Shown here: piece by piece, positions 1 through 17,099 of the stretch
How the letters are laid out: each line of letters begins with the position of its first letter
Numbering within the stretch: position 1 is the stretch's first letter
From: a virus
Taxonomy: Duplodnaviria > Caudoviricetes
Length of the DNA stretch: 64,000 bases
Virus record (IMG/VR): IMGVR_UViG_3300049141_000098
Coordinates: 195,647-259,646 of that record
Strand: one strand, 5' to 3'
The notes under the pieces: model-generated
What the model saw: only the letters and a program-made list of their open reading frames with translations
What the model was told of the DNA's origin: nothing
The model's database searches: none
Program-made: the position numbers and the translations under genes

Positions 1-436
1 GGATCTCATAGTGCCGGTGGTCGTGGCAGGGGATGACCACCTCCCGGTGCTCCCGGTGGTCGTAGTCGACCTTGCAGCCGCCGACACCCTCAGCGCACGC
101 CACGTAGTCCCGGACCAGGGACAGCTCCCCAGCATCCCAGAGCAGCGTCCACCCGGCGGGCAGCAGCTCCTCCATGTGATCCGAAGCCCGGTCCGAGAGG
201 CCTCCCTGTCCGACGATCACCTCCGCCATGTTTTCCTCGGCGTCAGTTCCGTCGCCGCAGCCGCCGGACGTCCCCTTGTACCACTCCAGGGCGGCGCGCT
301 CGTCGGCATCCATTGTGAAGCCGTGCGACTCGGCGATCTCGATGATCCGGTAGGTGTTCGTCCAGCCGTGGCACCCGTCCAGCCACGTTCCCGTACCGAC
401 TTCGGAGCCGTTCGTGAGCGTGATTGTGTCCTGCAT
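1..436 (-). CDS. hypothetical phage protein, runs off the window edge (MQDTITLTNGSEV...)
   Basis: Hand-translated, open to base 1; ATG preceded by CGGAAAGGGGAACGGG motif; not in the ORF track. Confidence 0.75.
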   Translation of the reverse strand, partial: MQDTITLTNGSEVGTGTWLDGCHGWTNTYRIIEIAESHGFTMDADERAALEWYKGTSGGCGDGTDAEENMAEVIVGQGGLSDRASDHMEELLPAGWTLLWDAGELSLVRDYVACAEGVGGCKVDYDHREHREVVIPCHDHRHYEI

Positions 437-460
437 CCCGTTCCCCTTTCCGCTACGTTT

Positions 461-619
461 TCAGTGATCGAACCCGCTGAACAGCCACGCCCGGTACTCC
501 GGGTCGTTGTTCATCACCATGGAATCCCCGAACGGATTGCACTCCAGGCACATGCCGCGCCGGTCCTCCGGGTTCGCCTCATTGTGGCATTCGGCACTGA
601 CACACGGCCTACCCTTCAT
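461..619 (-). CDS. small Cys-containing hypothetical protein (MKGRPCVSAEC...)
   Basis: ATGA overlap with upstream gene; C-terminal part of track ORF 461..1111. Confidence 0.65.
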   Translation of the reverse strand: MKGRPCVSAECHNEANPEDRRGMCLECNPFGDSMVMNNDPEYRAWLFSGFDH

Positions 620-987
620 CCTCCCGTCTCGGCGTGCAGTCGGGCGCGCTCCCGGCCTACGTTCTCCCAGTTCTCCATGTCGGCCTTGCGGCGCTGCGAC
701 CCCTCCATGTAGGCCGCCTGCACCTGCTTCAGGTATGCCATGTCGTCGTCCGGGATCAGCTTGCCGGTCGCCTTCGTTGTCCCGAGTGCCCCGCCGATGT
801 AGTACGCGCAGGCCTGACGCGCTCCCTCCGGCCCATGCCACACCCGCATCTGGTGCGCGTCGAAGTAGCGGGTCCCGCCACCCAGGTCGCTGCCGGTCGT
901 TTCCAGTGCGAAGTAGCCGTCCGTGAAGGCCTTCACCCGGGCGGACACCTCCCGCACCGTGGCCGCCGTGAACTTGATCGCCTTCAC
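616..987 (-). CDS. hypothetical protein
   Basis: Track ORF; GTGA coupling with upstream ORF. Confidence 0.75.
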   Translation of the reverse strand: MKAIKFTAATVREVSARVKAFTDGYFALETTGSDLGGGTRYFDAHQMRVWHGPEGARQACAYYIGGALGTTKATGKLIPDDDMAYLKQVQAAYMEGSQRRKADMENWENVGRERARLHAETGG

Positions 988-1130
988 CCGTTGACCCCTT
1001 CCTGATTGTCACTCTTGACCACCCGCAGGGTGACCGGCGTCCCGTCCATCGCCACCCAGTCGACTTCGCGCCCTTCGTCGATGTCTGCCAATGCTGCGTG
1101 CAGGTCGTCACTCGTCACGTAGACGAACAT
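984..1130 (-). CDS. 48-aa hypothetical protein (MFVYVTSDDLH...)
   Basis: Hand-translated; RBS CGGAAGGGAGAAGG; stop overlaps next start. Confidence 0.65.
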   Translation of the reverse strand: MFVYVTSDDLHAALADIDEGREVDWVAMDGTPVTLRVVKSDNQEGVNG

Positions 1131-1172
1131 TCAGCCTTCTCCCTTCCGTCCCCATTCGTCCCGTTCATGCTG

Positions 1173-1232
1173 ATCAGGAACACACTGGAAGATTCCGAAT
1201 TCGCTCCGGAATCTTCCCGAACGTTCCCGTCC
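1173..1232 (-). other. long intergenic RNA hairpin, family 1 (candidate RNase III-type site)
   Basis: 11-bp perfect upper stem 1187-1197/1207-1217; GUUCG/AGUGU core; paired lower stem. Confidence 0.75.
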
Positions 1233-1241
1233 GGCTGGCCG

Positions 1242-1754
1242 TCAGTGCGGGGTCCGGTCGATATACCGGCCCGGATCCCAGTTCGCGGCGTCCTCCCGCC
1301 CCCGCTCCCGCTCCCGGCCGTACTCCGTGATGTAGCCACGCTCGTCGCACTCGCCGCGCTCCCGGCGGTGCTTCTGGCTGGTGAAACACATCCCCTTGAT
1401 CATCTCAATGGGGAAGCCGCCGTGCGACTTGTGCTCGTGGCACGGCTGAAGCTCTTCGGCAGTGAACCGGCGCTCCCAACCACACCGGTCGAACTCCGAG
1501 CACCGGAAGCCGATGTGTACGCCGTCCTCCCACAGGGGGCGGAGAGAGACCGACGTGCGCCACGATTGGCCCGCCTTGTACGTCCCGGCCTTCACTTGGG
1601 CCGGACTCGGGTAGTAGGTGTGGCTGTGCTCCCGGTAGCCGGAGAGCAGCGTGCACGTGGAGCAGTGACTGAAGTAGCCGCCCGGCCCGGGGGGCTCATC
1701 GTCGTAACTACGTTCCCGGATCTTGCAGAGGGGGCACATGGGTGCCTTCTCCAT
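1242..1754 (-). CDS. Cys/His-rich hypothetical protein (MEKAPMCPLC...)
   Basis: RBS motif before ATG 1754; several CxxC motifs. Confidence 0.7.
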   Translation of the reverse strand: MEKAPMCPLCKIRERSYDDEPPGPGGYFSHCSTCTLLSGYREHSHTYYPSPAQVKAGTYKAGQSWRTSVSLRPLWEDGVHIGFRCSEFDRCGWERRFTAEELQPCHEHKSHGGFPIEMIKGMCFTSQKHRRERGECDERGYITEYGRERERGREDAANWDPGRYIDRTPH

Positions 1755-1793
1755 CCCCTTCTCCCTTCCGTCCGCATTCGCGGTAATTCGCAC

Positions 1794-1866
1794 CCGATCG
1801 GAGATGCACTGGAAGATTCGGAACCGGATTGGAAGGCTCCGAATCTTCCCGAACGTCACCGATCAG
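1794..1866 (-). other. long intergenic RNA hairpin, family 1
   Basis: 12-bp upper stem 1811-1822/1838-1849; GUUCG/AGUGC core; ~12-bp lower stem. Confidence 0.8.
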
Positions 1867-1873
1867 ACCTGTG

Positions 1874-2203
1874 TCACTGTCCCGCCTGGCGGAGCGTGAT
1901 GATCAGCTTCCGGGCCGTCTCGATGGTCCGCTCCCCGTTCTCGATCTGATCGAACAGGGCTTTCACCGCCTTTGAGTCACCATGCCGCCGCTCCGGCACC
2001 GCCCGGTCATGCTCGTCCAGGTGGTCCCAGTAGGCCGCCAGATCAGGGTCCCCGACACAGACGGTCTGCTTGCTCCCCCCCGAGGACATCTGATTCGTTC
2101 CGGCGATCGGCTCCGGTGCCGCGAACGACCGGGGGTCCGGCATCCGGTGCCGTCCGTTTTCGTCATGCCAGTGCTTAGGCTCCCGGCCGGTCAGCTCACT
2201 CAC
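1874..2203 (-). CDS. hypothetical protein
   Basis: Track ORF; GTGA coupling. Confidence 0.7.
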   Translation of the reverse strand: MSELTGREPKHWHDENGRHRMPDPRSFAAPEPIAGTNQMSSGGSKQTVCVGDPDLAAYWDHLDEHDRAVPERRHGDSKAVKALFDQIENGERTIETARKLIITLRQAGQ

Positions 2204-2439
2204 GTCTCATTCCTCTCCTTGAACCACTCTTCGGCATCCTGTCGGGCATCCTCCCGGAAGACCCGGTCAGGCCACCTGTTACTGCTCTTGCCTCGCATGG
2301 ACGCGGGTACCTGGAAGGCGTATCCGCGTCGCCCCTCGACGACTAGGCACTTTGTGCCCTGCCCGTCCCGCAGCACGGGCCAGGTGTCGTACAGACTTCC
2401 CTCCCGCTTCTTCAGCGAGTCACCAAGGGTGATCTTCAT
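2200..2439 (-). CDS. hypothetical protein (MKITLGDS...)
   Basis: Start overlaps upstream stop. Confidence 0.7.
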   Translation of the reverse strand: MKITLGDSLKKREGSLYDTWPVLRDGQGTKCLVVEGRRGYAFQVPASMRGKSSNRWPDRVFREDARQDAEEWFKERNET

Positions 2440-2933
2440 TTCCCACCCTCCGCGATTTCCTTGTGGATCAGCGCCCAGCCGTACGCCTTTGACTCGGGGT
2501 CGTAGTCGGCGTGATCGCAGCGCTCCCGCTCGGTCCACTCCTGACAGGGCATCCCATCCTCCCCGGCTCCGCAGACCGGCGGATGCATCTCGACGGAGAC
2601 GATCGCCCACAGGCCCGGCTCTTCGAGGATGCGCTCCTCCAGGCCCCGGCCGAAGTGGCGGCGTCCGGCATCGAACACGAACAGCGATCCCCCCTCGGCC
2701 CACCCCGTGAGCGCCCGCCATCCGTTTCCGATCCCGTCCAGCGCGGACCGCTCGTGCGCTTCGAGCACGTCCGGCATGTCCCAGTCGCCCGACCAGTCAA
2801 TGTTGATCGACTCTGGCGCGTAGTCCTCCAGCTTGGCCGGAGGGTACGGAGCCGTCTCGTACGTCCCGTCGGGCTTAACCAGGATCGGCAGCGCACTCGG
2901 TCCGTGCAGCACCTCGTCCAGCGTCTCGCTCAT
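2436..2933 (-). CDS. hypothetical protein (MSETLDEV...)
   Basis: GGAAAGGGAA RBS before ATG. Confidence 0.7.
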   Translation of the reverse strand: MSETLDEVLHGPSALPILVKPDGTYETAPYPPAKLEDYAPESINIDWSGDWDMPDVLEAHERSALDGIGNGWRALTGWAEGGSLFVFDAGRRHFGRGLEERILEEPGLWAIVSVEMHPPVCGAGEDGMPCQEWTERERCDHADYDPESKAYGWALIHKEIAEGGK

Positions 2934-2957
2934 GATCGTTTCATTCCCTTTCCATTT

Positions 2958-3025
2958 GTCCGCGCCATACAGGCACTGGAAAGCGCGACCGTGTCGCGCC
3001 CTCCCGAACCGGCATGCCCCGGTCA
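2958..3025 (-). other. long intergenic RNA hairpin, family 1
   Basis: Upper stem pairs fully only on the minus strand (two G.U pairs); GUUCG/AGUGC core. Confidence 0.75.
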
Positions 3026-3313
3026 GTCCTCGTTTTCGTTGTCGTAGACGACCGGTAGCCGATCCCATGCCAGTCTGAGCATGTTCTCCAGGTCAACCAC
3101 GATCGACCGCTTCCCGTACGTCCCCGCCCAGTCGGCGTCACTGTGCGCTTTGCCGAGCGTCATAGCGAACGACACCCCGTGTCCGTACTCCGGACCGTCG
3201 CCGTGCACTCCCGTCGAGAGGATCATGTATCGCTGATCCTCCGACTCGTAGTTGAGCGCGTCGTTCACCGACTCACTCAGCGTGACGTAGTCGCCCAGCA
3301 CCTTGCTGCTCAT
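3023..3313 (-). CDS. hypothetical protein
   Basis: Track ORF with CGGAAAGGGGA RBS. Confidence 0.7.
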   Translation of the reverse strand: MSSKVLGDYVTLSESVNDALNYESEDQRYMILSTGVHGDGPEYGHGVSFAMTLGKAHSDADWAGTYGKRSIVVDLENMLRLAWDRLPVVYDNENED

Positions 3314-3328
3314 CCGTCCCCCTTTCCG

Positions 3329-3628
3329 TCAGTCTTCGTCATCGGCGACCATGTCGTGCAGCTTCATCGCCTCGACCATGTCACCGAGCCGCACGAACAT
3401 CCCGTCATCCCGCACCTCAGCGCTCTTGGGGATCACGCGCGTAGCCTGCACCGGCTCCGGAACCGTCACCATCTCGTCGTACGGCTCCGCGTTGCCGAAC
3501 CGCGCTTCGTACTCCGCGTCCTGCATCTTGGGTAGTAGCTCTGCCGCCCAGTCCACGTACTCCAGCGGCAGGGGCGGGAAGAAATTGCCCCGAAAATGCA
3601 CGGTCAGTGCGGTACGTACGTCGATCAT
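3329..3628 (-). CDS. hypothetical protein (MIDVRTALTVHF...)
   Basis: RBS motif before ATG. Confidence 0.7.
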   Translation of the reverse strand: MIDVRTALTVHFRGNFFPPLPLEYVDWAAELLPKMQDAEYEARFGNAEPYDEMVTVPEPVQATRVIPKSAEVRDDGMFVRLGDMVEAMKLHDMVADDED

Positions 3629-3644
3629 GCCTAACTCCCTTCCG

Positions 3645-3715
3645 TCAGGACCACCCGGCCCCACGGAGCCGCACGGAGTTGCCCCCATGCCGCCCCGAAG
3701 TGCGATGTTCCGACT
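3645..3715 (-). other. long intergenic RNA hairpin, family 1 variant (CUUC/GUGG core)
   Basis: 12-bp upper stem with minus-strand G.U pairs; flanks shared with the copy at 9535. Confidence 0.65.
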
Positions 3716-4184
3716 ACATCCACACCGGCACGAGTCGAACCGTCCGCTCCGGCGATCCCTTGTACTCGATCAGGAACCGGCGAATTTCCCGCCAGTCCCG
3801 GTCGTGCTCGCATCCGGCGTTCCGCTCCAGTTCACCGCGCACCGTATCGAACACGGCTCCTTCGAACCGGGGCGCGTCCCACAGCGCCCGGGTGATCCGG
3901 TGCACCGTCAGGTCAGCCGCCCGTGCCCGTTCCTGCGCCACGCCACAGAGCGAACCAGGGATCACGTAGTGGCGGCCGATGCACACCCGGGGCTGGTCCT
4001 CGATCTCCTTGTGGAGAAGGTCCCGCAGGTGGCCGAGATGATCGGAGAGCCGGATGTAGTGCGTCCAGTCCTCTTGCGGTGCATCCTCGTCCGGGCTGCC
4101 GGTCAGATCGGTCGCACCCCTCCGTGCCGCATTCCACAGCCACGTTTTCCCGGGCGGTAGGACGTACAGATACGTGTGCTTCAC
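3714..4184 (-). CDS. hypothetical protein (MKHTYLYVLPPG...)
   Basis: GTGA overlap with upstream stop. Confidence 0.7.
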   Translation of the reverse strand: MKHTYLYVLPPGKTWLWNAARRGATDLTGSPDEDAPQEDWTHYIRLSDHLGHLRDLLHKEIEDQPRVCIGRHYVIPGSLCGVAQERARAADLTVHRITRALWDAPRFEGAVFDTVRGELERNAGCEHDRDWREIRRFLIEYKGSPERTVRLVPVWM

Positions 4185-4381
4185 TTCCCACCCTCCCGCT
4201 CGTCCAGCATCTCCTGGCCCAACTCCATGAGCTGACGCCCCAGCTTGACGGCCTCCTCTGGTGGAAGCTGAAGACTGCCGTCGGTCTTGCCGCTCGCCTT
4301 CTCCGTCGTGAGCAGGGAGACGTCTCCGCCACAACGGGCAAGCCACAACTCCCGTCCGTCCCTGGACTCTGGCACGCTCAC
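4181..4381 (-). CDS. hypothetical protein
   Basis: Track ORF with RBS motif. Confidence 0.7.
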   Translation of the reverse strand: MSVPESRDGRELWLARCGGDVSLLTTEKASGKTDGSLQLPPEEAVKLGRQLMELGQEMLDEREGGK

Positions 4382-4417
4382 GCTTCTCCCCTTTCCGTCC
4401 GTCTTCAGGGTTGTCCG

Positions 4418-4918
4418 TTACGCCGGGTCCCCAGCGTGCAGTACCGTCCCCTCCGGGACGCCTGTCGCTGACCAGCGCACCTGCGTGTCCTGGTCCCCGA
4501 CCACGTGATAGAGCTGATAGCAGTACTCCTTGCCGTCCCGGTACTCGGCGAACCGCTCCGCGTATTCCCGAGCCATTTCGACCGTCGGGAAGGGAATGTT
4601 CCACGCTTCCGCGTGCCGGTAGTAGCCGCTTCCGCCGCCGATGATCGGCATGATCCGGAATCGCTCGCCCTCCGGCGGCATGTCACCTTCGAAGAGCCAT
4701 CCGTCCGTGGATCCCCAGCCGCGCGTCTTGGCGAACTCCCGGTCGGCCGATTCCCGCGTCTCGTGCTGCGTGACCTTGACTTCCCGTTCGTACCGGTGGC
4801 CGCAGCGCGGAGGCCATCCGCCCGGCGTCCGGTTCCATACCGGGCGCGGACCCGGGTCGTATCCCGGCTCCGTTTTCTCGCAGCACGGCTCCAGCACCAT
4901 CACCGTGATCATCTTCAC
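4418..4918 (-). CDS. hypothetical protein
   Basis: Track ORF; GTGA coupling. Confidence 0.7.
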   Translation of the reverse strand: MKMITVMVLEPCCEKTEPGYDPGPRPVWNRTPGGWPPRCGHRYEREVKVTQHETRESADREFAKTRGWGSTDGWLFEGDMPPEGERFRIMPIIGGGSGYYRHAEAWNIPFPTVEMAREYAERFAEYRDGKEYCYQLYHVVGDQDTQVRWSATGVPEGTVLHAGDPA

Positions 4919-5160
4919 GCCTCTCGAACCTTGTGCTGCGTGTCAGCGTCCAGCACCACGTTCGTCCCCTTGACCAGGACGTACGGCGTCCCGCCGTTCC
5001 CGTAGACCATGACGTAGACTCGCCGCCACACACCCAGATATTCGATCATGTGGGCCGTCGGGATCTTCCCGCCGTACCCGGTCACGGTGTGCCCGCTCAC
5101 CGGCACCTCCGTGACCTTGACTCCCGTCACGCCCTCCGGGTCCGTGTACTCGATACTCAT
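4915..5160 (-). CDS. hypothetical phage protein
   Basis: Track ORF with RBS motif. Confidence 0.75.
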   Translation of the reverse strand: MSIEYTDPEGVTGVKVTEVPVSGHTVTGYGGKIPTAHMIEYLGVWRRVYVMVYGNGGTPYVLVKGTNVVLDADTQHKVREA

Positions 5161-5176
5161 CCGCTTCTCCCTTCCG

Positions 5177-5668
5177 TCAGTCCCGAGTGTTGCGCAGCGC
5201 CATCAGTGCCGCTTGATCGTCCCGGCAGGCATGTACGGTCAGCTCACTGACTCCGACGTACTTCGCGAGGATGATGCACGCCCGCAGGTACTCCGCCGAG
5301 ACGTCCGCCATCGGCCGCCCGCCCGCCGTGGTGTCGTCTGGCCCGTACCCCTGGTTTCGGGCGAACTCGGCCGCCCCATAGGCGCTCATCACCTGAGAGA
5401 TCAGTTCGACCTCAAAGCGATCCCGTTCCCGGCCATCCCCCTGGCCCTTCTGCACGGCCTTCCAGGCCCCCAAAACCCTTCCGTAGTGGCTGGACGCCTC
5501 GATGGCCACGTAACGCATGGGGTTGCCCAACGGAAGGCGCCCCCGCAGATCCCCCTCCGTCTCCGACATGGTCTGCGTCGTGACCCGCAACCACTGGTCG
5601 AACCCGTCCGCCTCCCGACCTCCCAGGGGGTTGCGCTTCCGGTCCGGCGTCTCCGTGAACAGCGCCAT
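5177..5668 (-). CDS. hypothetical protein
   Basis: Track ORF with RBS motif. Confidence 0.75.
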   Translation of the reverse strand: MALFTETPDRKRNPLGGREADGFDQWLRVTTQTMSETEGDLRGRLPLGNPMRYVAIEASSHYGRVLGAWKAVQKGQGDGRERDRFEVELISQVMSAYGAAEFARNQGYGPDDTTAGGRPMADVSAEYLRACIILAKYVGVSELTVHACRDDQAALMALRNTRD

Positions 5669-5706
5669 GTTCGGTTCCTCTCCCTTTCCGTCTTCCGTGA
5701 TCCCGC

Positions 5707-6090
5707 TCAGTGCTGCGGCTGACCGATCTCAGGCAACGGCCGCTCCCGGGGGACTTCCCGGCCTTCCCGGCTGTAGCACTCGGCCACCCATTCCCGGACC
5801 GCGCGCATCTCCTCTGAGCCGACCCGCCAGGTCGGTTCGTCGCCCCACAGGGGGGTGGTTCCCGTCGGATCCGGCCCGTCCATGAACGTCGCGGCCGTCC
5901 AGTCCGTGACGAACTGGCCGACGACCGTAAACGGCGTTCCCGTTTCGGGGTGCCGGGCGGTGAATCGGTGGCGCAGGTCGAACCACAGAACACGTCCCGC
6001 CTTGTCCCTCTGGTGGTCCTCCGCCTCCGTGTCCAGCACCACCAGGAACGGAACTCCCGTGACCCCGGCCGTCGTCCTCATGTGCAGCAT
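5707..6090 (-). CDS. hypothetical protein
   Basis: Track ORF with RBS motif. Confidence 0.75.
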   Translation of the reverse strand: MLHMRTTAGVTGVPFLVVLDTEAEDHQRDKAGRVLWFDLRHRFTARHPETGTPFTVVGQFVTDWTAATFMDGPDPTGTTPLWGDEPTWRVGSEEMRAVREWVAECYSREGREVPRERPLPEIGQPQH

Positions 6091-6119
6091 CCCGTTTCCC
6101 CTTCCCGTCGTTCCCGGCG

Positions 6120-6180
6120 AACCGCCGTGATCACAGAGGAGCGCGGAGTGGTCCCCGCGCTCCCCTGAAACCGGACGCTC
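6120..6180 (-). other. long intergenic RNA hairpin, family 1 variant (UUUC/GUGA core)
   Basis: 12-bp upper stem AGGGGAGCGCGG/CCGCGCUCCUCU with a G.U pair on the minus strand. Confidence 0.65.
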
Positions 6181-6184
6181 CCCG

Positions 6185-6793
6185 TCAGACTGTCGGCCGA
6201 TTGTTCGTGATCAGATCGATCATGGGATGATCGGCGTACTTGCCGGGTTCGGTGGCGAACGCCATCATCACGTCCTCCCCCTTCCGGTCGTTTACGATCC
6301 GGCGGAACTCCGCCAGGCTCACGCCCGTGTATGCCCGCGCGAACTGCACCGTGACTTCGTGATCCAGTTCGATGCGCGCGACCGTCTCCGGCTTCCCGGT
6401 ACTCCGGGCCATCGGGAACATCTCGGCCGTCCACATGATCTCGCGGGCGAGGCTGCACTCCCAGTGCCGTACCGAATCGTCGTAGAACTTGGCCTCCCCG
6501 TTCGCGTCACACCGGTTGAACCGGGACCGCCTGGAGAGCAGGGAGAGGAACCTGTCGCGATCGACCCCGTCCGCCCAGAACGCCTCCCACGTGGGCCGGA
6601 TCCCGCGCACCGCCGCGCCGTTCGCGTAGCCGCTGGCCAGATGGGCGAACCGTCGCCACACCGTCACCGCGTTCTGTGATTCCTGGTTCAGGTAGCCCGG
6701 CTGTCCCGGCCCGGGGCGCCCGTCGTGCTTGCGCTTCGCGCTGGTCAGGTGGTCGGCCAGCAGCCCGTGAAATTCCGCCAGAGTACGTCCCAT
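6185..6793 (-). CDS. hypothetical protein (MGRTLAEFHG...)
   Basis: RBS motif before ATG 6793. Confidence 0.75.
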   Translation of the reverse strand: MGRTLAEFHGLLADHLTSAKRKHDGRPGPGQPGYLNQESQNAVTVWRRFAHLASGYANGAAVRGIRPTWEAFWADGVDRDRFLSLLSRRSRFNRCDANGEAKFYDDSVRHWECSLAREIMWTAEMFPMARSTGKPETVARIELDHEVTVQFARAYTGVSLAEFRRIVNDRKGEDVMMAFATEPGKYADHPMIDLITNNRPTV

Positions 6794-6815
6794 GGTCCCG
6801 TTTCTCCCTTTCCGA

Positions 6816-7115
6816 TTACGCCACCAGACCCGCGCGAATCGGGTCCGGCTCCCAGGTTTTTGTCTGTCCGTCATGGTGCGTGTACGTGACCGTGACGGAC
6901 TCCACCCGCAACACCGTGTACCGGCCGGTCGAATCGGTCCGGTACGTGGTCGCGACTTCCAGCTCAGTCCCGTTGCTCAGGTTGTTGCGCAGCCTCCCGG
7001 CCAGCAGGTCAGCGATGTTGTCGTCCGTCGCGAACCGCAGTGCGACGTACTCACCCCACCCGCACTCATTACAGCGGCAGTCCCAAGGGTCGACTGCGAT
7101 CAGTCGCACACTCAC
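6816..7115 (-). CDS. hypothetical protein with CxC/CxxC motif
   Basis: Track ORF with RBS. Confidence 0.7.
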   Translation of the reverse strand: MSVRLIAVDPWDCRCNECGWGEYVALRFATDDNIADLLAGRLRNNLSNGTELEVATTYRTDSTGRYTVLRVESVTVTYTHHDGQTKTWEPDPIRAGLVA

Positions 7116-7132
7116 GATCCCGCCCTTCCGCG

Positions 7133-7351
7133 CTACTCGCGAAGCCCGCAGGCCCGCTTGAATTCCACGGCGTTGAAGGCCCTGTTGCGCTCCGTGAACA
7201 ACCGGACGAACCGGTCGGCGACACCGTCAAGGGCGTCCATCGCTTCTCGGATGTACATGCCTTCCACGGGGCCGTCGCTCAGCTCCCAAGGGTGTTGTTC
7301 GAGTTCTGCCCGAATCTCCCGGGCGACGTCCTCCGGCGTCAGTCCGTCCAT
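7133..7351 (-). CDS. hypothetical protein (MDGLTPEDV...)
   Basis: Starts next to upstream stop; start uncertain. Confidence 0.6.
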   Translation of the reverse strand: MDGLTPEDVAREIRAELEQHPWELSDGPVEGMYIREAMDALDGVADRFVRLFTERNRAFNAVEFKRACGLRE

Positions 7352-7353
7352 GG

Positions 7354-7767
7354 TCAGATCCCGTTGCTCTCGCGCTTGCCGTACGTGCCGACCAGGCCGA
7401 TGGACAAGCGACACCCGCCGCATGTCACCCCGGCCAGAGCCGTACCCGACTCCCACACAGCCAGATCCCGCCCCTGCGAGTCGGCGCAGACTCCGCGCGG
7501 AGCCTCCCCGTCCTCCTTGGGCAGCACCAGCGCGTGACGCCTGCCGTCCGTGTCCTGGCCGACGTGATGGATGCGGACCGTCGGTGCGTAGATGAACAGC
7601 GTGCCGCCGGTCTCGTAGTGCCTCCCACCGTTCGTATCGAACCAGAACGGCCGCCCTTCCGGGCTTGCCGACAGCGTGTCCAGCACGACCGCGCCACCGT
7701 CACTCGGCTTCAGGCTCCCGCGCGTGATCTCACCGATCTCGACGCGAACGGCTCCCATGCGTTCCAT
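7354..7767 (-). CDS. hypothetical protein (MERMGAVRV...)
   Basis: C-terminal part of track ORF 7354..8091. Confidence 0.65.
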   Translation of the reverse strand: MERMGAVRVEIGEITRGSLKPSDGGAVVLDTLSASPEGRPFWFDTNGGRHYETGGTLFIYAPTVRIHHVGQDTDGRRHALVLPKEDGEAPRGVCADSQGRDLAVWESGTALAGVTCGGCRLSIGLVGTYGKRESNGI

Positions 7768-7775
7768 AGCGCTCC

Positions 7776-8075
7776 TCACTGACCCTTGACGGGGTTCGTC
7801 AGGGCCAGGTCCATCCCGTCGCCTGCTGCGGCGGACAGAACGACGTGCCGGGTGTCGTCGTGCATCCTGCCGTCTGTGTCGAGCAGACCGTAGCCGGACA
7901 GCACGCTCCCCAGGTTGCCGAACGGCAGGTGGCTGGGGTTGCGCGCGATCTGCACCGCCTCGAACAGTGCCAGGGGGTGTGCGTCCCGCACGACCTGAAG
8001 GGTCATCAGGGTTGTGCGCACGGTCGGCTCCGCAACGCTGCTGCCATCCTTCAGTTCCAGCATTTCCATAGTCAT
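7776..8075 (-). CDS. hypothetical protein
   Basis: Track ORF; ATGA coupling. Confidence 0.7.
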   Translation of the reverse strand: MTMEMLELKDGSSVAEPTVRTTLMTLQVVRDAHPLALFEAVQIARNPSHLPFGNLGSVLSGYGLLDTDGRMHDDTRHVVLSAAAGDGMDLALTNPVKGQ

Positions 8076-8263
8076 TCCTCCCGCTCTGCAACCGCTTCGA
8101 CCGTGGCCGTGATCATCACCTCGTACACGTCCACCGGCAGAGCCAGCCAGCGGGAATCCCCAGTCGGCCCCTCCGCCTTGACCCGGACCGTTTCGACCGG
8201 CCCTCCAGCCCCCTCCTTGAGCGCCCTACGCAACTCCCGCTCGACGTACTCTGCGTTCGTCAT
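8072..8263 (-). CDS. hypothetical protein (MTNAEYVE...)
   Basis: Purine-rich RBS before ATG. Confidence 0.65.
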   Translation of the reverse strand: MTNAEYVERELRRALKEGAGGPVETVRVKAEGPTGDSRWLALPVDVYEVMITATVEAVAEREE

Positions 8264-8279
8264 GATCTGCCTCTCTCCC

Positions 8280-8459
8280 TTACTTCTTTCCGAGCAGGCC
8301 CGCGCGGTAGCCCTCGCGCCAGGCATCAGCGACCGCACCGCCTTGGTAGGCAAGCGGGATCTCCGGCGCCCCCGACCCTGGGTTTTCTCGCTTCCAGCGG
8401 CCCCACTTGCGACCGTTCGCCCGCGCGTCCTCAATGAGGCTGCGCCTCTGTTCGGGCAT
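8280..8459 (-). CDS. hypothetical protein (MPEQRRSL...)
   Basis: GGGAGAGGAAA RBS. Confidence 0.65.
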   Translation of the reverse strand: MPEQRRSLIEDARANGRKWGRWKRENPGSGAPEIPLAYQGGAVADAWREGYRAGLLGKK

Positions 8460-8468
8460 TTTCCTCTC

Positions 8469-8533
8469 CCATCCGGTAATGCACTGGAACGCTCCGGTCA
8501 CCCTTCCGGAGCGTTCCCGAACGTCACGGGATG
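8469..8533 (-). other. long intergenic RNA hairpin, family 1
   Basis: 12-bp perfect upper stem GGAACGCTCCGG/CCGGAGCGTTCC; GUUCG/AGUGC core; lower stem paired. Confidence 0.8.
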
Positions 8534-8534
8534 A

Positions 8535-8867
8535 TCAGACGTACGGAGTCTCCCGGTACTCCGCGAGCGCTTCCCGGATACGGTTCTGGCAGCCGGACGT
8601 GGACGGGGTGTACTTGACGTCCGGCACCACCCAGCCACCGTCCCGGCTGTCGATCCAGGCGACCGGCGTCCCGTAGTGGTAGACGACGTGCGAGGCGTGC
8701 TCGATGTCCTTCCGCCACTCTTCGGGCAGACGGTTCGGGTCACCGGTCGGGCTGGCTCCGAGCTGTGCGGCCCCGCGCGGGAGCCTCCCGTCCGATCCGC
8801 CGCGCCCCATGTTGATCACGTGCTGGAGTTCCTGCCACGTTCCGGTACCGATCGTCATTCCGAACAT
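8535..8867 (-). CDS. phage hypothetical protein (VVYHYGTPVAW...KYTPSTS)
   Basis: Track ORF with RBS motif; resembles a common small phage protein type (from recall, not searched). Confidence 0.75.
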   Translation of the reverse strand: MFGMTIGTGTWQELQHVINMGRGGSDGRLPRGAAQLGASPTGDPNRLPEEWRKDIEHASHVVYHYGTPVAWIDSRDGGWVVPDVKYTPSTSGCQNRIREALAEYRETPYV

Positions 8868-8929
8868 GTCCCGTTTCTCCCTCTCCGTCTTTCGCTATCT
8901 CTTCGCAGATTCTAGTGATCAGATGACGC

Positions 8930-8939
8930 GACCTAGGCC
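8930..8939. promoter_or_regulatory. GRCCTAGGYC palindrome (candidate operator)
   Basis: GACCTAGGCC, intergenic. Confidence 0.65.
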
Positions 8940-8964
8940 AATCGACATCATCGTGACCCGTTCG

Positions 8965-9504
8965 TTACCGGGGCGGCAACTTCGCCAGCCCGACGAGCAC
9001 CTGACCGATCTCGTCGTCGTACTCCTCCGCGATCATGAGGCGGCTCTCGTACTCCAGGACCCCGGAGGGGAAGTCGCAGGTCCAGTCGTCCCCATCGCCC
9101 GGGTAGCCGGTCGCCATCGACGTGTCGACGCTGTAGCGGTCGCTCAGCTTGGACGAGAGGGATACGCCCCACCCGTTCGACAGGACCAGGCGCATGACCG
9201 AACGCGGTTCGTCCCCCTCGTAAGCGGGCTCCCACTCCCACGGACCAATCACGGTGGCTCCGTAACGCAGGGACAGGCGTTCCCCCGCGTTCGTCAGCTC
9301 CCGCGTCATCCACTCCCGGTACGTCATCCCGTCCGTCTCGACGTCGAACCGGGCAGACTCGACGTCGTACCCCTGCACGATGCACCAGCCGCGCATGTAT
9401 CCCTGCGCTTCCGCCGCGCTCCCGGCGGGGATCTCCGCCCGCTTGTTCACCGTCCCGTACATCGGGTGACTCGCCGTGGCTTTGATGCCGTAGATCTTGG
9501 TCAC
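8965..9504 (-). CDS. hypothetical protein
   Basis: Track ORF with RBS motif. Confidence 0.75.
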   Translation of the reverse strand: MTKIYGIKATASHPMYGTVNKRAEIPAGSAAEAQGYMRGWCIVQGYDVESARFDVETDGMTYREWMTRELTNAGERLSLRYGATVIGPWEWEPAYEGDEPRSVMRLVLSNGWGVSLSSKLSDRYSVDTSMATGYPGDGDDWTCDFPSGVLEYESRLMIAEEYDDEIGQVLVGLAKLPPR

Positions 9505-9534
9505 GCCCCTTTTTTCCTTTCCGTCACGCTCCCG

Positions 9535-9590
9535 AACCGGGAACCCACGGAGTACGTCCCGCAGCGCGGAACGCCCCCGAAGATCACCGC
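9535..9590 (-). other. long intergenic RNA hairpin, family 1 variant
   Basis: CUUC/GUGG core; upper stem needs three G.U pairs on the minus strand. Confidence 0.6.
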
Positions 9591-9760
9591 CCCCTGGGCT
9601 TCAAGGCCTCACGCATGGCGAGCACCAGGAAGACAAACCCAATACTGATGAACACCTCCCCCAGGGCTACGTGCACGGTTGCGTCCACCAGGTAGACGCC
9701 GCCGAGCAGATAGAAGATCGTCCCGGCGCACATGGCGTGGAATCTTCTGTCTTTGCCCAT
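9584..9760 (-). CDS. small two-TM membrane protein (MGKDRRFHAMCAG...)
   Basis: Hand-translated, 58 aa, two hydrophobic segments; not in the ORF track. Confidence 0.65.
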   Translation of the reverse strand: MGKDRRFHAMCAGTIFYLLGGVYLVDATVHVALGEVFISIGFVFLVLAMREALKPRGR

Positions 9761-9788
9761 CGCTCCCCGTTCCTACCCGTACGCCGGA

Positions 9789-10163
9789 TCAGACCGTGCG
9801 GCGTGTTGAATGCTGGTCTCGGGGGTCGATCGCCGGAAGATCCCGCAGCACGGCTACCGCCTTCCGCGCCGCCTTCAGCACCACATCCGACGTCCCAGCA
9901 GACTCCCCACCGTTCACGACCGGCGTCGACTGATCCGTGCGCCACGGCGTCCCGTCGTACGTGACGTCACGCAGCGGGACCGTCTCCCGAATCGTGATCA
10001 TGTCGATCCGGCCGGTGTCGGCCTTCCACATGAGGGAGATCCCGCGCTTGTTGGCCAGCCACACCCGCGCAACCTGGTCCCCCTTGTGCGGGCCCGTGAA
10101 CGGCCCTTCCACCGCCGCATTGAACTCCAGCGACAGATGACCGGCCACCTGCAAAGCGTCCAT
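9789..10163 (-). CDS. hypothetical protein
   Basis: Track ORF with RBS motif. Confidence 0.7.
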   Translation of the reverse strand: MDALQVAGHLSLEFNAAVEGPFTGPHKGDQVARVWLANKRGISLMWKADTGRIDMITIRETVPLRDVTYDGTPWRTDQSTPVVNGGESAGTSDVVLKAARKAVAVLRDLPAIDPRDQHSTRRTV

Positions 10164-10221
10164 TCCCGTCCCTCCCTCTCCGTTACTTCGCTGGCAAATC
10201 CGCGCTTTGACTTCCGAACGG

Positions 10222-10545
10222 TCAGCCCTGCCGGTCGCCCATGGGCGGATACGTCGCGCCCGGGGCGGGCTCCCGCTTGTGCCACGGGGTGTCGTCCCCA
10301 GTCGTCGCGCTTCCGTCTGCGAGATCCTGCGCCCGGACCGCGTAGCCGTCCCGGTACGCCCGGCACAGGATCCCGTCCGGCCCGTCGGCGTACATGAATG
10401 GCACGTCCGTCACCTCCGTGGCGAACGGCTCCCGGTAGGTTTCGCTGTAGTCGTGCGCCCGGTCGGCGTCGTCCCGTCCGTGCTCCCACGCCTCCGCCGC
10501 GTCCGCGTTCTGCGCGAACTCCGACGGCATCCCTTTGCTGGTCAC
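10222..10545 (-). CDS. hypothetical protein (MTSKGMPSEF...)
   Basis: RBS motif before GTG 10545. Confidence 0.7.
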   Translation of the reverse strand: MTSKGMPSEFAQNADAAEAWEHGRDDADRAHDYSETYREPFATEVTDVPFMYADGPDGILCRAYRDGYAVRAQDLADGSATTGDDTPWHKREPAPGATYPPMGDRQG

Positions 10546-10568
10546 CCTGGTCCCCTTTCCGTTGTCCG

Positions 10569-10630
10569 TGCCGGGCGGCACTCCCGGGCAACCGGTCTCA
10601 CGACCGGTTGCCCTAGGGCGTCTCCCGTCA
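10569..10630 (-). other. long intergenic RNA hairpin, family 2
   Basis: 11-bp upper stem; flanks GGGAGACGCCCTA/GGGAGTGCCG pair as a mismatched lower stem. Confidence 0.65.
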
Positions 10631-10810
10631 GGTACAGGCCCCGTGCGTTGTACGTCCGCGCGGGACCGTCCCGGAGGGGTCGGCCAGCATCGCGCGGGGC
10701 GTGATGTTGCTTCCGAAGTACACGCCCTTCCCCCGGTAGTCGTTCGTCGCGTCACCCCGGTCAGGGTCCTGCGCCGCCCGATGCCGCGCCATCTTCACCG
10801 TGTGCGTCAT
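10628..10810 (-). CDS. small hypothetical protein
   Basis: Track ORF with RBS motif. Confidence 0.65.
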   Translation of the reverse strand: MTHTVKMARHRAAQDPDRGDATNDYRGKGVYFGSNITPRAMLADPSGTVPRGRTTHGACT

Positions 10811-10835
10811 GTCCCGTTTTCCCTTTCCGAATGGT

Positions 10836-10896
10836 GTCAGGCGACACCCCCGGGCGGTCGGAATGTCTCCCGGCCGCCCTAGCGCGACTCCCTGAC
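10836..10896 (-). other. long intergenic RNA hairpin, family 2
   Basis: Same flanks and mismatch positions as the 10569 copy, different upper stem. Confidence 0.65.
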
Positions 10897-10897
10897 G

Positions 10898-11248
10898 TCA
10901 GAGTGCGTTGACTTGATCCCGGTAACCGCCCGCGCAGTCGATCATTTCCGGATCGATCCGGTCCTGTTCGACGTTGAACATTCCGCGTGCCGTCTCCTCG
11001 AACGACGTACGGACCAGGGTTGCCAGGCGCCTCCGCCCGTTACCGTGATCCCGCCCCTCCCGCAGTACCGTCCACGTGTAGACGCGTCCGTCGGTCATGA
11101 GCATCACGCCACGCGCGAGACACTGATCACCGGGGCGCATCCGGAACTGGATGCTCTGCGACACCTTCCCTTCCACGTACTCACCGCGCCCGAAGCTGTA
11201 ACCGTTCGGTCCGTACGGTGCTCCCTGGTCCCAGAACGCTTCCGTCAT
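10898..11248 (-). CDS. hypothetical protein
   Basis: Track ORF with RBS motif. Confidence 0.75.
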   Translation of the reverse strand: MTEAFWDQGAPYGPNGYSFGRGEYVEGKVSQSIQFRMRPGDQCLARGVMLMTDGRVYTWTVLREGRDHGNGRRRLATLVRTSFEETARGMFNVEQDRIDPEMIDCAGGYRDQVNAL

Positions 11249-11271
11249 ATCTCCCGCTCTCCCTTCCGTTC

Positions 11272-11281
11272 GGCCTAGGCC
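11272..11281. promoter_or_regulatory. GRCCTAGGYC palindrome (candidate operator)
   Basis: GGCCTAGGCC just upstream of an RBS. Confidence 0.65.
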
Positions 11282-11290
11282 ACGAGGATG

Positions 11291-11632
11291 CTACCGCATC
11301 CGCCCGACGCCCGCGAAGGTTCCGTCAGCGACCGTCCGACGCAGCCACGCATCCCGCAGGGTCTCCAGGGTGCCGAGATCCCCGTAGCTGTGCTCGATCC
11401 CGTCCGCCGAGATCAGCGTGACCTGAGCGGCGAAAACGGACACCCACTCAATGGCCACGCACGTGATACGCCGACCGGCATACCGGTAGCCCGACACGCG
11501 GATCGCCGCGCCGTTGATCTTCCGGGTCGGCAGCCCTCCCATGATCCGGAGCTGTCCGACCCCGTCGTTCGCAACGGCCCCCGTCCCGGATTCCGTCGCG
11601 TGATCGCTGGGCTTGTCCATCGTGACACCCAT
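11291..11632 (-). CDS. hypothetical protein
   Basis: Track ORF with RBS. Confidence 0.65.
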   Translation of the reverse strand: MGVTMDKPSDHATESGTGAVANDGVGQLRIMGGLPTRKINGAAIRVSGYRYAGRRITCVAIEWVSVFAAQVTLISADGIEHSYGDLGTLETLRDAWLRRTVADGTFAGVGRMR

Positions 11633-11678
11633 GTCCGTTCTTCCCTTCCCGAACTCCCCTGCGAACGCCTTTGCGTCC

Positions 11679-11747
11679 GTCGCGGCAAGCAGGCTGGAGC
11701 GCCCTTCGGCTCACCCCCGAAGGGCGCTCCCGTCCACCGGCCCCGAC
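11679..11747 (-). other. long intergenic RNA hairpin, family 1
   Basis: Perfect upper stem GGAGCGCCCTTCGG; G.A closing pair; U.U replaced by A.C at the same position; lower stem paired. Confidence 0.7.
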
Positions 11748-12157
11748 TACTTCTTGATCTTGTAGCCCATGGACAGACAGTCGGCCGACGCCGTGACCGT
11801 GGCGTACGAGATCACCGTGTTGTGGTTCCGGTAACGGTCGTACGCCATGTCGAACACGAACTCCCGCACGCTCGCACGGATCCCGGACTTCACAGCGGCC
11901 TTGCACACCGCGCGACGCTGCGCCGCACCCTCCCGGCTGCCGTCACCCAGCCACAGCAGGGCACCGTCCCGGAACGTCCCGGTCTTCAGGCACTTCCGGT
12001 CATACTCCGGCATGCCCCGGTAGCCGGTCTCACAGATGGACTTCGCCGCCTTGACCGTCCCGCGCGCCGGAGCTGCGTCCGCCGGGGGGTTGAACGCCAT
12101 CAGCGCGAGGAGCCCCGCGAGGACGGTCAGGATGCTGCGGCCCTTGATGTTGTTCAT
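11747..12157 (-). CDS. secreted protein (signal peptide ending ADA/A)
   Basis: Basic N-terminus, hydrophobic core, AxA site, four Cys. Confidence 0.75.
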   Translation of the reverse strand: MNNIKGRSILTVLAGLLALMAFNPPADAAPARGTVKAAKSICETGYRGMPEYDRKCLKTGTFRDGALLWLGDGSREGAAQRRAVCKAAVKSGIRASVREFVFDMAYDRYRNHNTVISYATVTASADCLSMGYKIKK

Positions 12158-12190
12158 GATTGTTTCCTCTCACTTTCCGTGTCTCGTCCC

Positions 12191-12256
12191 TCACTCCCGG
12201 ACGATTCGGCCCGGACCCGGGGCATCCCCGAGCCGGACCGGACCGCACGGCCGTGA
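12191..12256 (-). other. long imperfect intergenic RNA hairpin
   Basis: About 30 bp of pairing with several G.U pairs on the minus strand. Confidence 0.55.
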
Positions 12257-12877
12257 TCAGTAACCCTCGCGCCCCTGCGCTACCGCGCTTCCGTCCTCGT
12301 AGAACCGGACGTCATAGGGGTTGCGGTTGACGTCCCGCAGCGCTTGTTCACACTCCGCCGGTCCCTGTCCGCACTCCGTGTAGGCCTGCCAGGACAGGTA
12401 GGCGCCCTCGATGATCAGTTCCCGCGCGGCGTCCCGGTCCGGGTCACCCGCACCCGCCGGAGTCCCCACCACCGTGACTGGCAGCACCGGCCGGTCCGGC
12501 GCATCCGGGTTGTTGCCGAACGTCCCGAGCAGCCACGCGACCATGAGCAGCACGGCCACGCATCCGGCACCGATCACGCCGACCACCACCCGTTCCGACG
12601 TCCGGAGCTGTCCGCTCCCGTCCACCGGCATGGTTGCCCACGGTTCCCGCGCGTCCGTCTCCCGGTCCTGCCCGGCCGCCGTACCGGCCGCATCCCGGAT
12701 CAGTTCGTTGACGATCTCGGCGAACTCCGGCCCGTCGATCTTGCCGAGCACGTACCGGCCCGCCGCGCGGTCGAAGATCTCGCGGAACGATTCCCGCACG
12801 TCCCTGCCGTTCACCCGCTCGATGTGCGGAGCCAGCCGACGACGCTCCGCCGTGATCACGTTCTGCTGCTGCGTCAT
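12257..12877 (-). CDS. single-pass membrane protein
   Basis: Hydrophobic segment VVVGVIGAGCVAVLLMVAWLLG; RBS motif. Confidence 0.75.
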   Translation of the reverse strand: MTQQQNVITAERRRLAPHIERVNGRDVRESFREIFDRAAGRYVLGKIDGPEFAEIVNELIRDAAGTAAGQDRETDAREPWATMPVDGSGQLRTSERVVVGVIGAGCVAVLLMVAWLLGTFGNNPDAPDRPVLPVTVVGTPAGAGDPDRDAARELIIEGAYLSWQAYTECGQGPAECEQALRDVNRNPYDVRFYEDGSAVAQGREGY

Positions 12878-12898
12878 GTCCCGTTTCCCCTTCCCGGC

Positions 12899-12924
12899 GG
12901 GGCCCCGGTGCGTCCCGGGGCCCC
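12899..12924. terminator. GC-rich hairpin, possible terminator
   Basis: GGGGCCCCGG-TGCGTC-CCGGGGCCCC between genes. Confidence 0.45.
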
Positions 12925-12939
12925 TTGTGTGCGTGCGAG

Positions 12940-14811: not shown

Positions 14812-14865
14812 GATCTTCCCGCTTTCCGTATCCGCGCCGCGCTTTTCGCGGCGTCTGCGATTTTC

Positions 14866-15051
14866 TTACTGCTCGACGATGTGCCGGGCGTCACTGCCCC
14901 ATGCGCTACCGCGCACCCATGCCGCACTCGCCGCGTAGTCACCCAAACCGGGCCGCCGGTAAATCCGGCCGGTTTCGCTCCGGTACTCAATCGTCCCGGA
15001 CTCCTTGACGATCACCGTTGCGCCATCCCGCAATGCGAGCGTAAGAGTCAT
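14866..15051 (-). CDS. hypothetical protein (MTLTLALRDG...), first ORF of the leftward arm
   Basis: CGGAAAGGAAAAGCGGG RBS before ATG 15051. Confidence 0.65.
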   Translation of the reverse strand: MTLTLALRDGATVIVKESGTIEYRSETGRIYRRPGLGDYAASAAWVRGSAWGSDARHIVEQ

Positions 15052-15179
15052 CCCGCTTTTCCTTTCCGAAGCCTCCCCATGCGGAGGGCGAAACGGACAC
15101 AGCTCACCCGTAATAGCGTCACGCAGGTTCTTTGCCTGCTGCCTACCGGACGTGAGTTGTCCGTTCGTGCTCACCGCAC

Positions 15180-16110
15180 GTGAGCGATAAGGGGGCGAAC
15201 CGTGCGTCGTCCAGTGGAAAGCGTCCCGTTTATCGGGTCGTCTGTCCGTGCGTCGCTATCAGCGTTCGCCCCCTCCTCATGCAATCCGGTCCCGTAGGAC
15301 CGGGCACGGGGCGCTAAGCGTTACCCGTGCGTCGCCGGGGGGAGTTTCTGAGGCTCCCCGTATCCGGCCGGTACCGTCGCACGTCACCCCGGTCAACCCC
15401 ACGGGGGATTAGACCCGTGCCCGGAGAGTGCGTGATCATCTATGCCGTCCTCGCATAGTGCGTTTGGTAACTCGCACCCGGGGTGAAACGGGTTCCGCTA
15501 CGGACTGACTATTTCGACACGTGTTCCCGAATGCATTCCCAGGTTTCACCGCGTGGCTTGCGGATGGACTCCCTGACAAGTGGCCCGTACTTACGTGCGC
15601 CGTAACTCGCGGAGGCTGGACTAACTGACTTGACACGCTTTCCCATGACATCCCCGGATTCCCCCGCCGCGCAGGTTGCGGCTGTAAGGCATTCCGGCGA
15701 GTGGCCACGTACTCCCGTGCGCCATACCCCCGACTGACGGAAGGTTTACCCCTCCCCCAGGTGCGAGCGCCCACCGTTTCCGGCCGTGGTGGACAGTGCC
15801 GTTTGCGCCTCCCGCGCTACCCGGTCAACCCGGGCGTTTCGCGTTCGGCTCCGAGAATCTCAAGGAACCCCATTCGGAGTTGCGAGCAACGAGACTGCCC
15901 GCGCTTCCGTCCGGCCCGCTCCCGCCCCATCGTCGTCCGGCGAACCGGTGCGTCAGAGCGAATGCGAGTGCTTGTGCTGTGCGCCCCGCGCTGCGTCCCG
16001 TAGGCGCTGCGTCGTGGCGACAACGAGAACATTGGCAGAGATGGCTGCCATTGCGTAAGCGAACAGCGCGAGCAACGGGTCTCCCGATTTGCAAACTCGC
16101 AGGTCAGAGC
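15180..16110 (-). ncRNA. candidate large structured noncoding RNA or leader
   Basis: No credible ORF; nested inverted repeats; two c(UACG)g loops and one GAAA tetraloop on the minus strand. Confidence 0.45.
15502..15726. repeat. imperfect tandem duplication (~105 nt units, 15502-15604 and 15618-15726)
   Basis: Shared blocks GGACTRACT, GACACG, TTGCGG, AGTGGCC(A)CGTACTYMCGTGCGCCRTA. Confidence 0.7.
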
Positions 16111-16800: not shown

Positions 16801-17099
16801 GGCAGGGTGCGACTTGTGCTGTCTGGCGTACTGATCATGTGTCTGACCTGGGGATATGCCAGCCCTACGCGCGCGCGTGCGCTCTCCTGTCTCCCGCTCG
16901 GCCTGTCCCGAATGTCTGATACGCGACACATTGTGTGGAGTCCCGGACGCCATAGCCATACGGGGTAGGGGTATGTAAGAGATCTTGAGAGGGAGAGGTT
17001 CGAGCAGTGAGGTGGGTGGGGATGCTCGAAGGTTTGGCCAGTTCAGGGCGCAGGGTGCTGGCCAGACAGGGGACGTGACGAGACGAGACGTCTCGGAAG

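Follow-up and report, generated by a model that had tools for sequence, protein, structure and literature searches.

Among the closest described systems to the elements reported here are the sites at which RNase III processes early and late mRNAs of phage T7, namely the intercistronic hairpins called R sites (R0.3, R0.5, R1, R1.1, R1.3 and others). When folded for comparison, they showed a conserved upper stem of ~10 bp, an irregular loop, in which the cut falls, and a lower stem, with a folding free energy (dG) of about -20; the cleavage coordinates that we marked on these folds are reportedly those of Dunn and Studier 1983. For phage phiC31, a paper by Ingham, Hunter and Smith of 1995 is said, by its title, to describe terminators without poly-U in the early region, and its authors reportedly weighed termination against processing. 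The R1.1 site of T7 carries an asymmetric 4/5-nt internal loop (PMC6121014), while in T4-type phages the promoter early stem-loops (PeSLs) consist of a stem-loop with an early promoter (PMC2839356, PMC4122927). In Cluster K mycobacteriophages, the extended start-associated sequences (ESAS) are 17-bp inverted repeats, conserved in sequence around a variable spacer and lacking compensatory changes, for which the authors favoured DNA binding (PMC3203893). Here we describe a family of long hairpins which lie between the genes of a leftward arm in a stretch of 64,000 nt (hereafter the window), the closing part of an IMG/VR phage genome that is complete at 259,646 bp and bears direct terminal repeats (IMGVR_UViG_3300049141_000098, positions 195,647 to 259,646). 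Like the T7 R sites, they are an intercistronic family of phage hairpins. We conclude that they are selected cis-acting RNA structures on the transcript of the leftward small-gene arm.

The arm is made of small genes with high third-position GC content and runs from ~210.5 kb down to ~174 kb of the genome, which includes the window from position 1 to ~15,000. The nearest cultured relatives of this phage are the cluster BM Streptomyces phages Satis, Kradal, Quantum, EhyElimayoE, Kela and Frankenweenie (PMC6687918, PMC10652959). From four copies of the hairpin we built a covariance model, R1, which was rebuilt as R2 from 32 matches in the window and in three BM phages, Frankenweenie, Satis and Kela. 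Over the four whole genomes R2 gave 57 matches (13 in this genome, 14 in Frankenweenie, 13 in Satis and 17 in Kela), and 56 of these fell on the coding strand inside the homologous leftward arm. Since the E-values went down to 1e-11 and all matches except one were on the coding strand of one arm, chance is excluded. The analyses below draw on these 57 matches, on a 56-row model alignment, on 53 minus-strand copies for the core and on 49 distinct copies for folding. Run unfiltered at E < 0.05, R2 returned 15 minus-strand copies in this genome, nine within the window and six further copies to its left (genome 179131-195415), and a whole-genome motif-plus-fold scan found the pattern confined to the minus strand between 184.8 and 205.2 kb. 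Nine more copies were found on the 192-kb IMG/VR contig L245, immediately after the homologue of g0, the gene with which the arm opens. The family is conserved in at least six phages.

The case for a selected RNA structure comes from covariation and from the asymmetry between the two strands. In the 56-row alignment, standard pairs occupied 87% of cells, as against 36-49% when the 3' partner was slid by 1-3 columns, and the covariation score was 0.695, as against 0.07-0.12 for the slid partners. Compensatory changes on both sides were seen in 21 of the 24 modelled pairs. The original prediction had proposed a covariance model across related phages, and such a model recovered copies in Frankenweenie, Satis, Kela and L245, with double changes in these 21 pairs. 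As the 56-row alignment had been fitted to the model, we repeated the analysis on a fresh MAFFT alignment of 16 copies with RNAalifold, and obtained the same succession of lower stem, U.G pair, unpaired column, C-G pair, unpaired column and upper stem, with 11 of 16 pairs compensated. In 47 of the 49 distinct copies the sense RNA was the more stable of the two strands, the mean difference from the antisense being 8.4 kcal/mol (p = 2e-9). It had also been claimed that G.U pairs are particular to the minus strand, and we indeed counted 160 among 1030 pairs on the sense (minus) strand versus 35 among 881 on the antisense. Taken together, covariation, sense-strand stability and the bias in G.U pairs show that the selected structure sits on the coding-strand transcript. 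The typical hairpin starts 1-14 nt past a stop codon and has a lower stem of 8-13 bp and an upper helix of ~12-16 bp, giving a total helix of ~24-30 bp with a mean dG of -36 over the 49 distinct copies; the loop measures 3-8 nt and is in many copies a stable tetraloop. Covariation and folds also agreed with the earlier description of upper stems mostly 11-14 bp long, which differ in sequence and yet stay paired.

At the junction of the two stems lies a core that is far more constrained. Its C-G pair was unchanged in 53 of 53 minus-strand copies, and the position 5' of it was a 1x1 mismatch in 52 of the 53, being U.U in 39, A.C in 8 and C.A in 5, and never purine-purine. The type of mismatch was coupled to the next outward pair: U.G occurred with U.U, G-C with A.C, and U-A or C-G with C.A. 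Above the C-G pair we found G.A in 23 copies and G-C in 22. The core thus tabulated agrees with the one first proposed (U.G, U.U, C-G, then G.A or G-C), and the replacement of U.U by A.C in the copy at 11679 was likewise seen. At orthologous junctions the core types were stable, while the upper stems had diverged with compensation. The hairpin after gene g2 had the core GAC/GCC in all four genomes, and that after g1 had UCC/GAA in this genome (G000), Frankenweenie and Kela, with UCC/GGG in its Satis counterpart in the model alignment (L004:22344-22405). After g33, the core was C-G/A.C/C-G in this genome versus U.G/U.U/C-G in Frankenweenie and Kela; the mismatch was thus retained and its identity changed.

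The copies in the window, together with related hairpins and one gap that holds a core word alone, are as follows.

1168..1236, minus strand: family copy, core UUC/GUG with G.A; R2 51.7 bits, E 4e-8; dG -36; stop codon 12 nt upstream, start codon 44 nt downstream.
1792..1868, minus strand: family copy, core UUC/GUG with G.A; 15-bp upper stem and 9-nt loop; R2 60.7 bits; dG -44.7.
2959..3023, minus strand: family copy, core UUC/GUG with G.A; 12-bp upper stem; R2 57.7 bits; dG -42.5; stop codon 6 nt upstream.
3653..3714, minus strand: weak variant, CUUCG...CCGUGG, with a poorly formed lower stem; R2 22.6 bits, E 0.03; an orthologous hairpin follows the homologous gene in Frankenweenie.
6119..6186, minus strand: variant copy, core UUC/GUG with A-U replacing G.A; R2 31.7 bits; dG -49.5; orthologous hairpins in Frankenweenie and Kela.
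8467..8532, minus strand: family copy, core UUC/GUG with G.A; R2 54.8 bits; each of the three BM phages has an orthologous hairpin behind the homologous gene.
9531..9598, minus strand: variant copy overlapping the stop codon, core UUC/GUG with G-C; R2 32.5 bits.
10164..10221, minus strand: gap with the 5' core word CCGTTCGGAAG alone; no hairpin (dG -11.9) and no 3' partner.
10563..10636, minus strand: related hairpin, GCCCUAGGG...CCCGGGAGUG; 35-nt inverted repeat with a C.A mismatch or bulged A at the place of the core; R2 16.8 bits.
10836..10896, minus strand: related hairpin of the GCGCUAGGG...CCCGGGGGUG type; dG -40.9.
11675..11748, minus strand: variant copy, core GAC/GCC (G-C, A.C, C-G, G.A); R2 28.2 bits; the same core type follows the homologous gene in three BM phages.
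12190..12257, minus strand: copy overlooked in the original prediction, core UCC/GAA (U-A, C.A, C-G, G-C); R2 47.7 bits, E 3e-7; the same type stands at the orthologous place in BM phages.

The original prediction had named seven clear copies, a variant at 9535 and a decayed copy near 10185. Folding of the minus strand at these places gave long hairpins of -36 to -56 kcal/mol except near 10185, and by fold and R2 the seven copies and the variant were all true minus-strand hairpins, that at 3653-3714 being weak (22.6 bits). The decayed copy was sustained in one respect, its 5' word CCGTTCGGAAG being kept in the gap at 10164-10221, and failed in the other, as there was no hairpin (dG -11.9); the word may be the remnant of a decayed copy or a chance occurrence. 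The upper stems of the copies at 1168..1236 and 1792..1868 were nearly identical, and the BM orthologues of the copy at 8467..8532 had upper stems that were different but compensated. The related hairpins at 10563-10636 and 10836-10896 have the architecture of the family in common, their counterpart of the core mismatch being C.A or a bulged A, and the BM homologues of the former scored 30-34 bits with R2.

A near-identical upper stem of the GGAAGATTCGG type recurs across genomes (window 1168-1236 and 1792-1868; L005:17988-18067, L004:16212-16291, L003:6870-6949), the BM versions having an additional helix in the loop, and this similarity suggests that the GGAAGATTCGG-type copies may be a recently duplicated or unusually constrained subfamily. 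Many copies of BM phages (L003, L004, L005; e.g. L004:19515-19535) have Shine-Dalgarno-like loops, A(A/G)GGGGG, which are mostly not found in the copies of this genome. A plain 10-bp GGGGCCCCGG hairpin without the family core stands in the arm's first gap, after a 623-amino-acid gene (window 12899-12924). A weak plus-strand match to R2 (23 bits) at window 20782-20842, outside the arm, has the word GGGGTTCG and no family core and is probably unrelated to the family. The core words by themselves were not enriched outside the hairpins; TTCGGGA words occur at 16673 and 16906.

The placement of the hairpins is as regular as their core. The lower stem starts at a median of 6 nt past the upstream stop codon (range -6 to 24), which was TGA in 41 of 48 cases, and the hairpin ends 10-49 nt ahead of the next start codon, with a purine-rich start-associated motif, typically GACGGAAGGGAGA, in between. 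The distances to stop and start and the list of gaps thus uphold the earlier statement that the copies are bounded by a stop codon on one side and the next ribosome-binding site (RBS) on the other. By our reading of the gap list of this genome a hairpin was found in ~20 of the ~24 arm gaps of ~58-141 nt (15 of the family and 5-6 of the related type), whereas arm genes with no hairpin between them overlapped by 4 nt or were separated by gaps of 40 nt or less. The hairpins therefore partition the arm into groups of tightly coupled genes, each with one to five members. Where the BM phages depart from the gene order of this genome, the hairpin keeps with its upstream gene, as would a 3'-end element. 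Gene g2 with its 3' hairpin (window 11747-12157 with 11675-11748) stands before g3-g4 in this genome and after them in Frankenweenie, Satis and Kela (cf. L003:12632-13083); from gene order, this gene-plus-hairpin unit has moved between G000 and the BM phages.

Two other motifs share these gaps. The purine-rich motif, approximately GACGGAAGGGAGA, precedes most starts of the arm, with or without a hairpin (window 437-15070, e.g. 8435-8460, 1131-1160 and 5669-5706). A palindrome, GGCCTAGGCC (GGCCTAGGTC at 8868-8964), is found next to some hairpins, 5' or 3' of them, and elsewhere occupies a gap by itself (window 11249-11290 and 8868-8964; L001:16394-16410; L003:11950-12000).

As for function, we tentatively favour, as a reading that may well be right but falls short of an even chance, that the hairpins are intercistronic processing and stabilising signals on the message of the leftward arm, with host RNase III as the best candidate for the enzyme. 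A double-strand-specific endonuclease would bind the ~24-30 bp helix and would cut at or near the irregular core. Cutting would leave the upstream message with a protective hairpin at its 3' end, and the downstream message with a 5' end a short way ahead of its RBS. The choice of the host enzyme rests on the lack of one in the phages: neither RNase III nor a double-stranded RNA-binding domain (dsRBD) was found in the four phages (G000, Frankenweenie, Satis and Kela), and one RNase III gene was present in each of two Streptomyces genomes examined, so that the host enzyme would be needed. RNase III needs about two helical turns of double-stranded RNA (roughly 20 bp and upwards), a length that the helix attains. 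At sites cut in vivo by the E. coli enzyme, the two positions flanked by the cuts mostly form base pairs, with a G-C or C-G among them (PMC6212723); the invariant C-G pair would be compatible with this.

Several points weigh against processing by RNase III. That the arm is read as one polycistronic message, that this message is cut, by which enzyme, and with what effect on expression, are all things that we infer. The GGCCTAGGCC palindrome, as a possible promoter operator, means that the arm may hold internal promoters and may not be one transcript. Where T7 has an asymmetric internal loop, these hairpins have a 1x1 mismatch set in a GC-rich helix of great stability, and such a single mismatch could hinder RNase III rather than guide it. 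The T7-like geometry that had been proposed stands in part: the helix of ~24-30 bp, the intercistronic position and the conserved irregularity agree with it, whereas a single 1x1 mismatch is not the asymmetric 4/5-nt loop of R1.1. We know of no sequence rule for Streptomyces RNase III with which the core might be compared, and an invariant pair with restricted mismatches could equally mark the site of a sequence-specific RNA-binding protein.

That last point leads to the rival which we rank next, and which we hold to be possible but unlikely. The hairpins may be sites for a dedicated RNA-binding protein of the phage or the host, belonging to no recognised family, which would read the C-G pair and the mismatch and control the stability or translation of the flanking cistrons without RNase III. 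A C-G pair kept in 53/53 copies, beside a mismatch which is only U.U, A.C or C.A and never purine-purine, looks like a specific contact, and the distance from core to loop is fairly constant, with 28-34 nt between the C and the G in 42 of 49 copies. Both the arm and the genome are rich in proteins without a Pfam family, and when ten conserved arm proteins were compared with Pfam, zero families were matched. On the other hand, no candidate protein has been identified, helices of 24-30 bp are far longer than typical protein-binding hairpins, and the phages have no dsRBD. To a self-contained phage system we give the same limited credence: a structure-specific nuclease or RNA-binding protein encoded by the phage, and belonging to neither the RNase III nor the dsRBD family, would recognise the C-G pair and mismatch and would punctuate or gate the whole host-takeover arm, and it may act with a leader RNA of ~1 kb and may release the upper hairpins of 35-40 nt as small RNAs.

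Somewhat less likely still, in our estimation, is that the hairpins are terminators without a U tract, attenuators or pause sites, read through by an antitermination-modified RNA polymerase, e.g. via the structured leader RNA of ~1 kb with which the arm begins. A stable GC-rich hairpin right after the stop codon, which moves with the upstream gene, would suit such a role. However, the 10 nt after the stem contain 0-3 T and are 72% purine, a U tract was found in no copy, and a terminator scan called no member of the family; an intrinsic (Rho-independent) terminator is ruled out by the missing U tract. The actinobacterial RNA polymerase requires a U tract in vitro, and earlier reports of U-less termination may reflect nucleases (PMC3993855), which also speaks against this account. 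With at least 15 terminators in one arm and no room for promoters after them, the distal genes would be silenced, and the conserved mismatch would be left unexplained.

We are more doubtful again about passive elements with no specific partner, which would act as barriers to 3'-5' exonucleases and as insulators that keep each RBS free of upstream structure, the mismatch serving only to break up what would be a long perfect palindrome. Such palindromes are unstable in DNA, and hairpins as stable as these (mean dG -36), many with stable tetraloops, at the 3' ends of cistrons would fit; but passive elements have no need for an invariant C-G pair, for a mismatch at a fixed position or for a mismatch type coupled to the neighbouring pair.

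DNA-level recombination or mobility sites bounding gene cassettes, as are integron attC, REP/RAYT (repetitive extragenic palindromes with their associated transposases) and T4 PeSLs, are very improbable: the array of small co-oriented genes without assigned function and the movement of one gene with its 3' hairpin as a unit between G000 and the BM phages would agree with them, but the stems differ between copies rather than being copied, the G.U-rich pairing works on the sense strand only, the hairpins have no accompanying promoter motif, no tyrosine recombinase was found in the three BM phages and no Y1 transposase in the four phages. This genome does encode a tyrosine recombinase (PF00589, window 44064-44552, E 2e-16, in a 390-amino-acid frame), whereas Frankenweenie, Satis and Kela, all of which carry the hairpins, have no PF00589 match, which rejects attC sites; hairpins of the REP/RAYT or IS200/IS605 type were rejected since PF01797 (Y1 transposase) had no match in the four phages and the stems differ between copies. 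Also dropped were N4-type hairpin promoters, as the loops are not conserved, a mimic of the tRNA T-arm, as GUUCG is paired with covariation, and translational coupling by sequestration of the RBS, which lies outside the stem.

We further looked for the family beyond these phages. An Rfam scan of window 1-17000 at E <= 1 gave no family, the one microRNA match being a chance one of 28 bits against a cut-off of 100 bits. The two core words, searched as exact patterns in IMG/VR and in one genome per prokaryote species, gave nearly all chance matches, and after folding the only true copy among the matches listed was on L117. Among the 150 of ~20,000 candidates scored per genome, R2 gave one match in four actinomycete genomes, a perfect 24-bp palindrome without the core, so that hosts may yet hold copies. 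No description of the elements was found in the cluster BM genome papers or in full-text literature searches. The hairpins are thus a new RNA family and a new variant of the known idea of punctuation by intercistronic phage hairpins.

With ~13-17 copies in each genome of the cultivable cluster BM phages, this well-supported family of structured RNAs offers a tractable case for how large actinophages organise the expression of dozens of small early-type genes. Its preserved mismatch beside an invariant pair is a sharp and mutable feature which makes the question directly testable, and the hairpins may find use as intercistronic insulators in Streptomyces engineering. If processing by RNase III is the true reading, this would be the first T7-like system of mRNA punctuation in actinobacteria, and would supply natural substrates from which the specificity of the Streptomyces enzyme, which is linked to antibiotic regulation, could be defined.

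Set against the known systems, the hairpins resemble the stem-loops of the phiC31 early region in being intergenic and poly-U-less in a Streptomyces phage, a likeness drawn by description alone; we know of no conserved mismatch core in the phiC31 sites. With the T4-type PeSLs they share the form of repeated stem-loops flanking small genes without assigned function in variable regions, where gene and motif can move together. PeSLs, however, carry an early promoter, whereas no promoter motif was found here and the 10-49 nt from hairpin to start are too short for one; identity with PeSLs was rejected on these grounds, the scan for sigma-70-type promoters over window 1-17500 having found none, which is weak evidence as Streptomyces promoters are diverse. 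The start-associated sequences (SAS) and ESAS of Cluster K likewise lie in the non-structural arm of an actinophage, in many copies and one orientation, with a purine-rich motif before starts and an inverted repeat upstream. The arms of ESAS are conserved in sequence, whereas those of the hairpins vary and covary, which argues for a role at the RNA level unlike that of ESAS; identity with SAS/ESAS was rejected accordingly, and the analogous part is limited to the start-associated purine motif. The T7 R sites come closest in form, sharing with the hairpins an arrangement of two stems, upper and lower, about a conserved irregularity, as well as the lack of a U tract. T7 relies on a host enzyme which it does not encode, and the hairpins described here, whose cleavage is only predicted, would do likewise. 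The T7 sites have upper stems of ~10 bp and conserved sequence, whereas the hairpins of this arm have variable upper stems of 12-16 bp, a 1x1 mismatch beside an invariant C-G pair and a dG of about -36.

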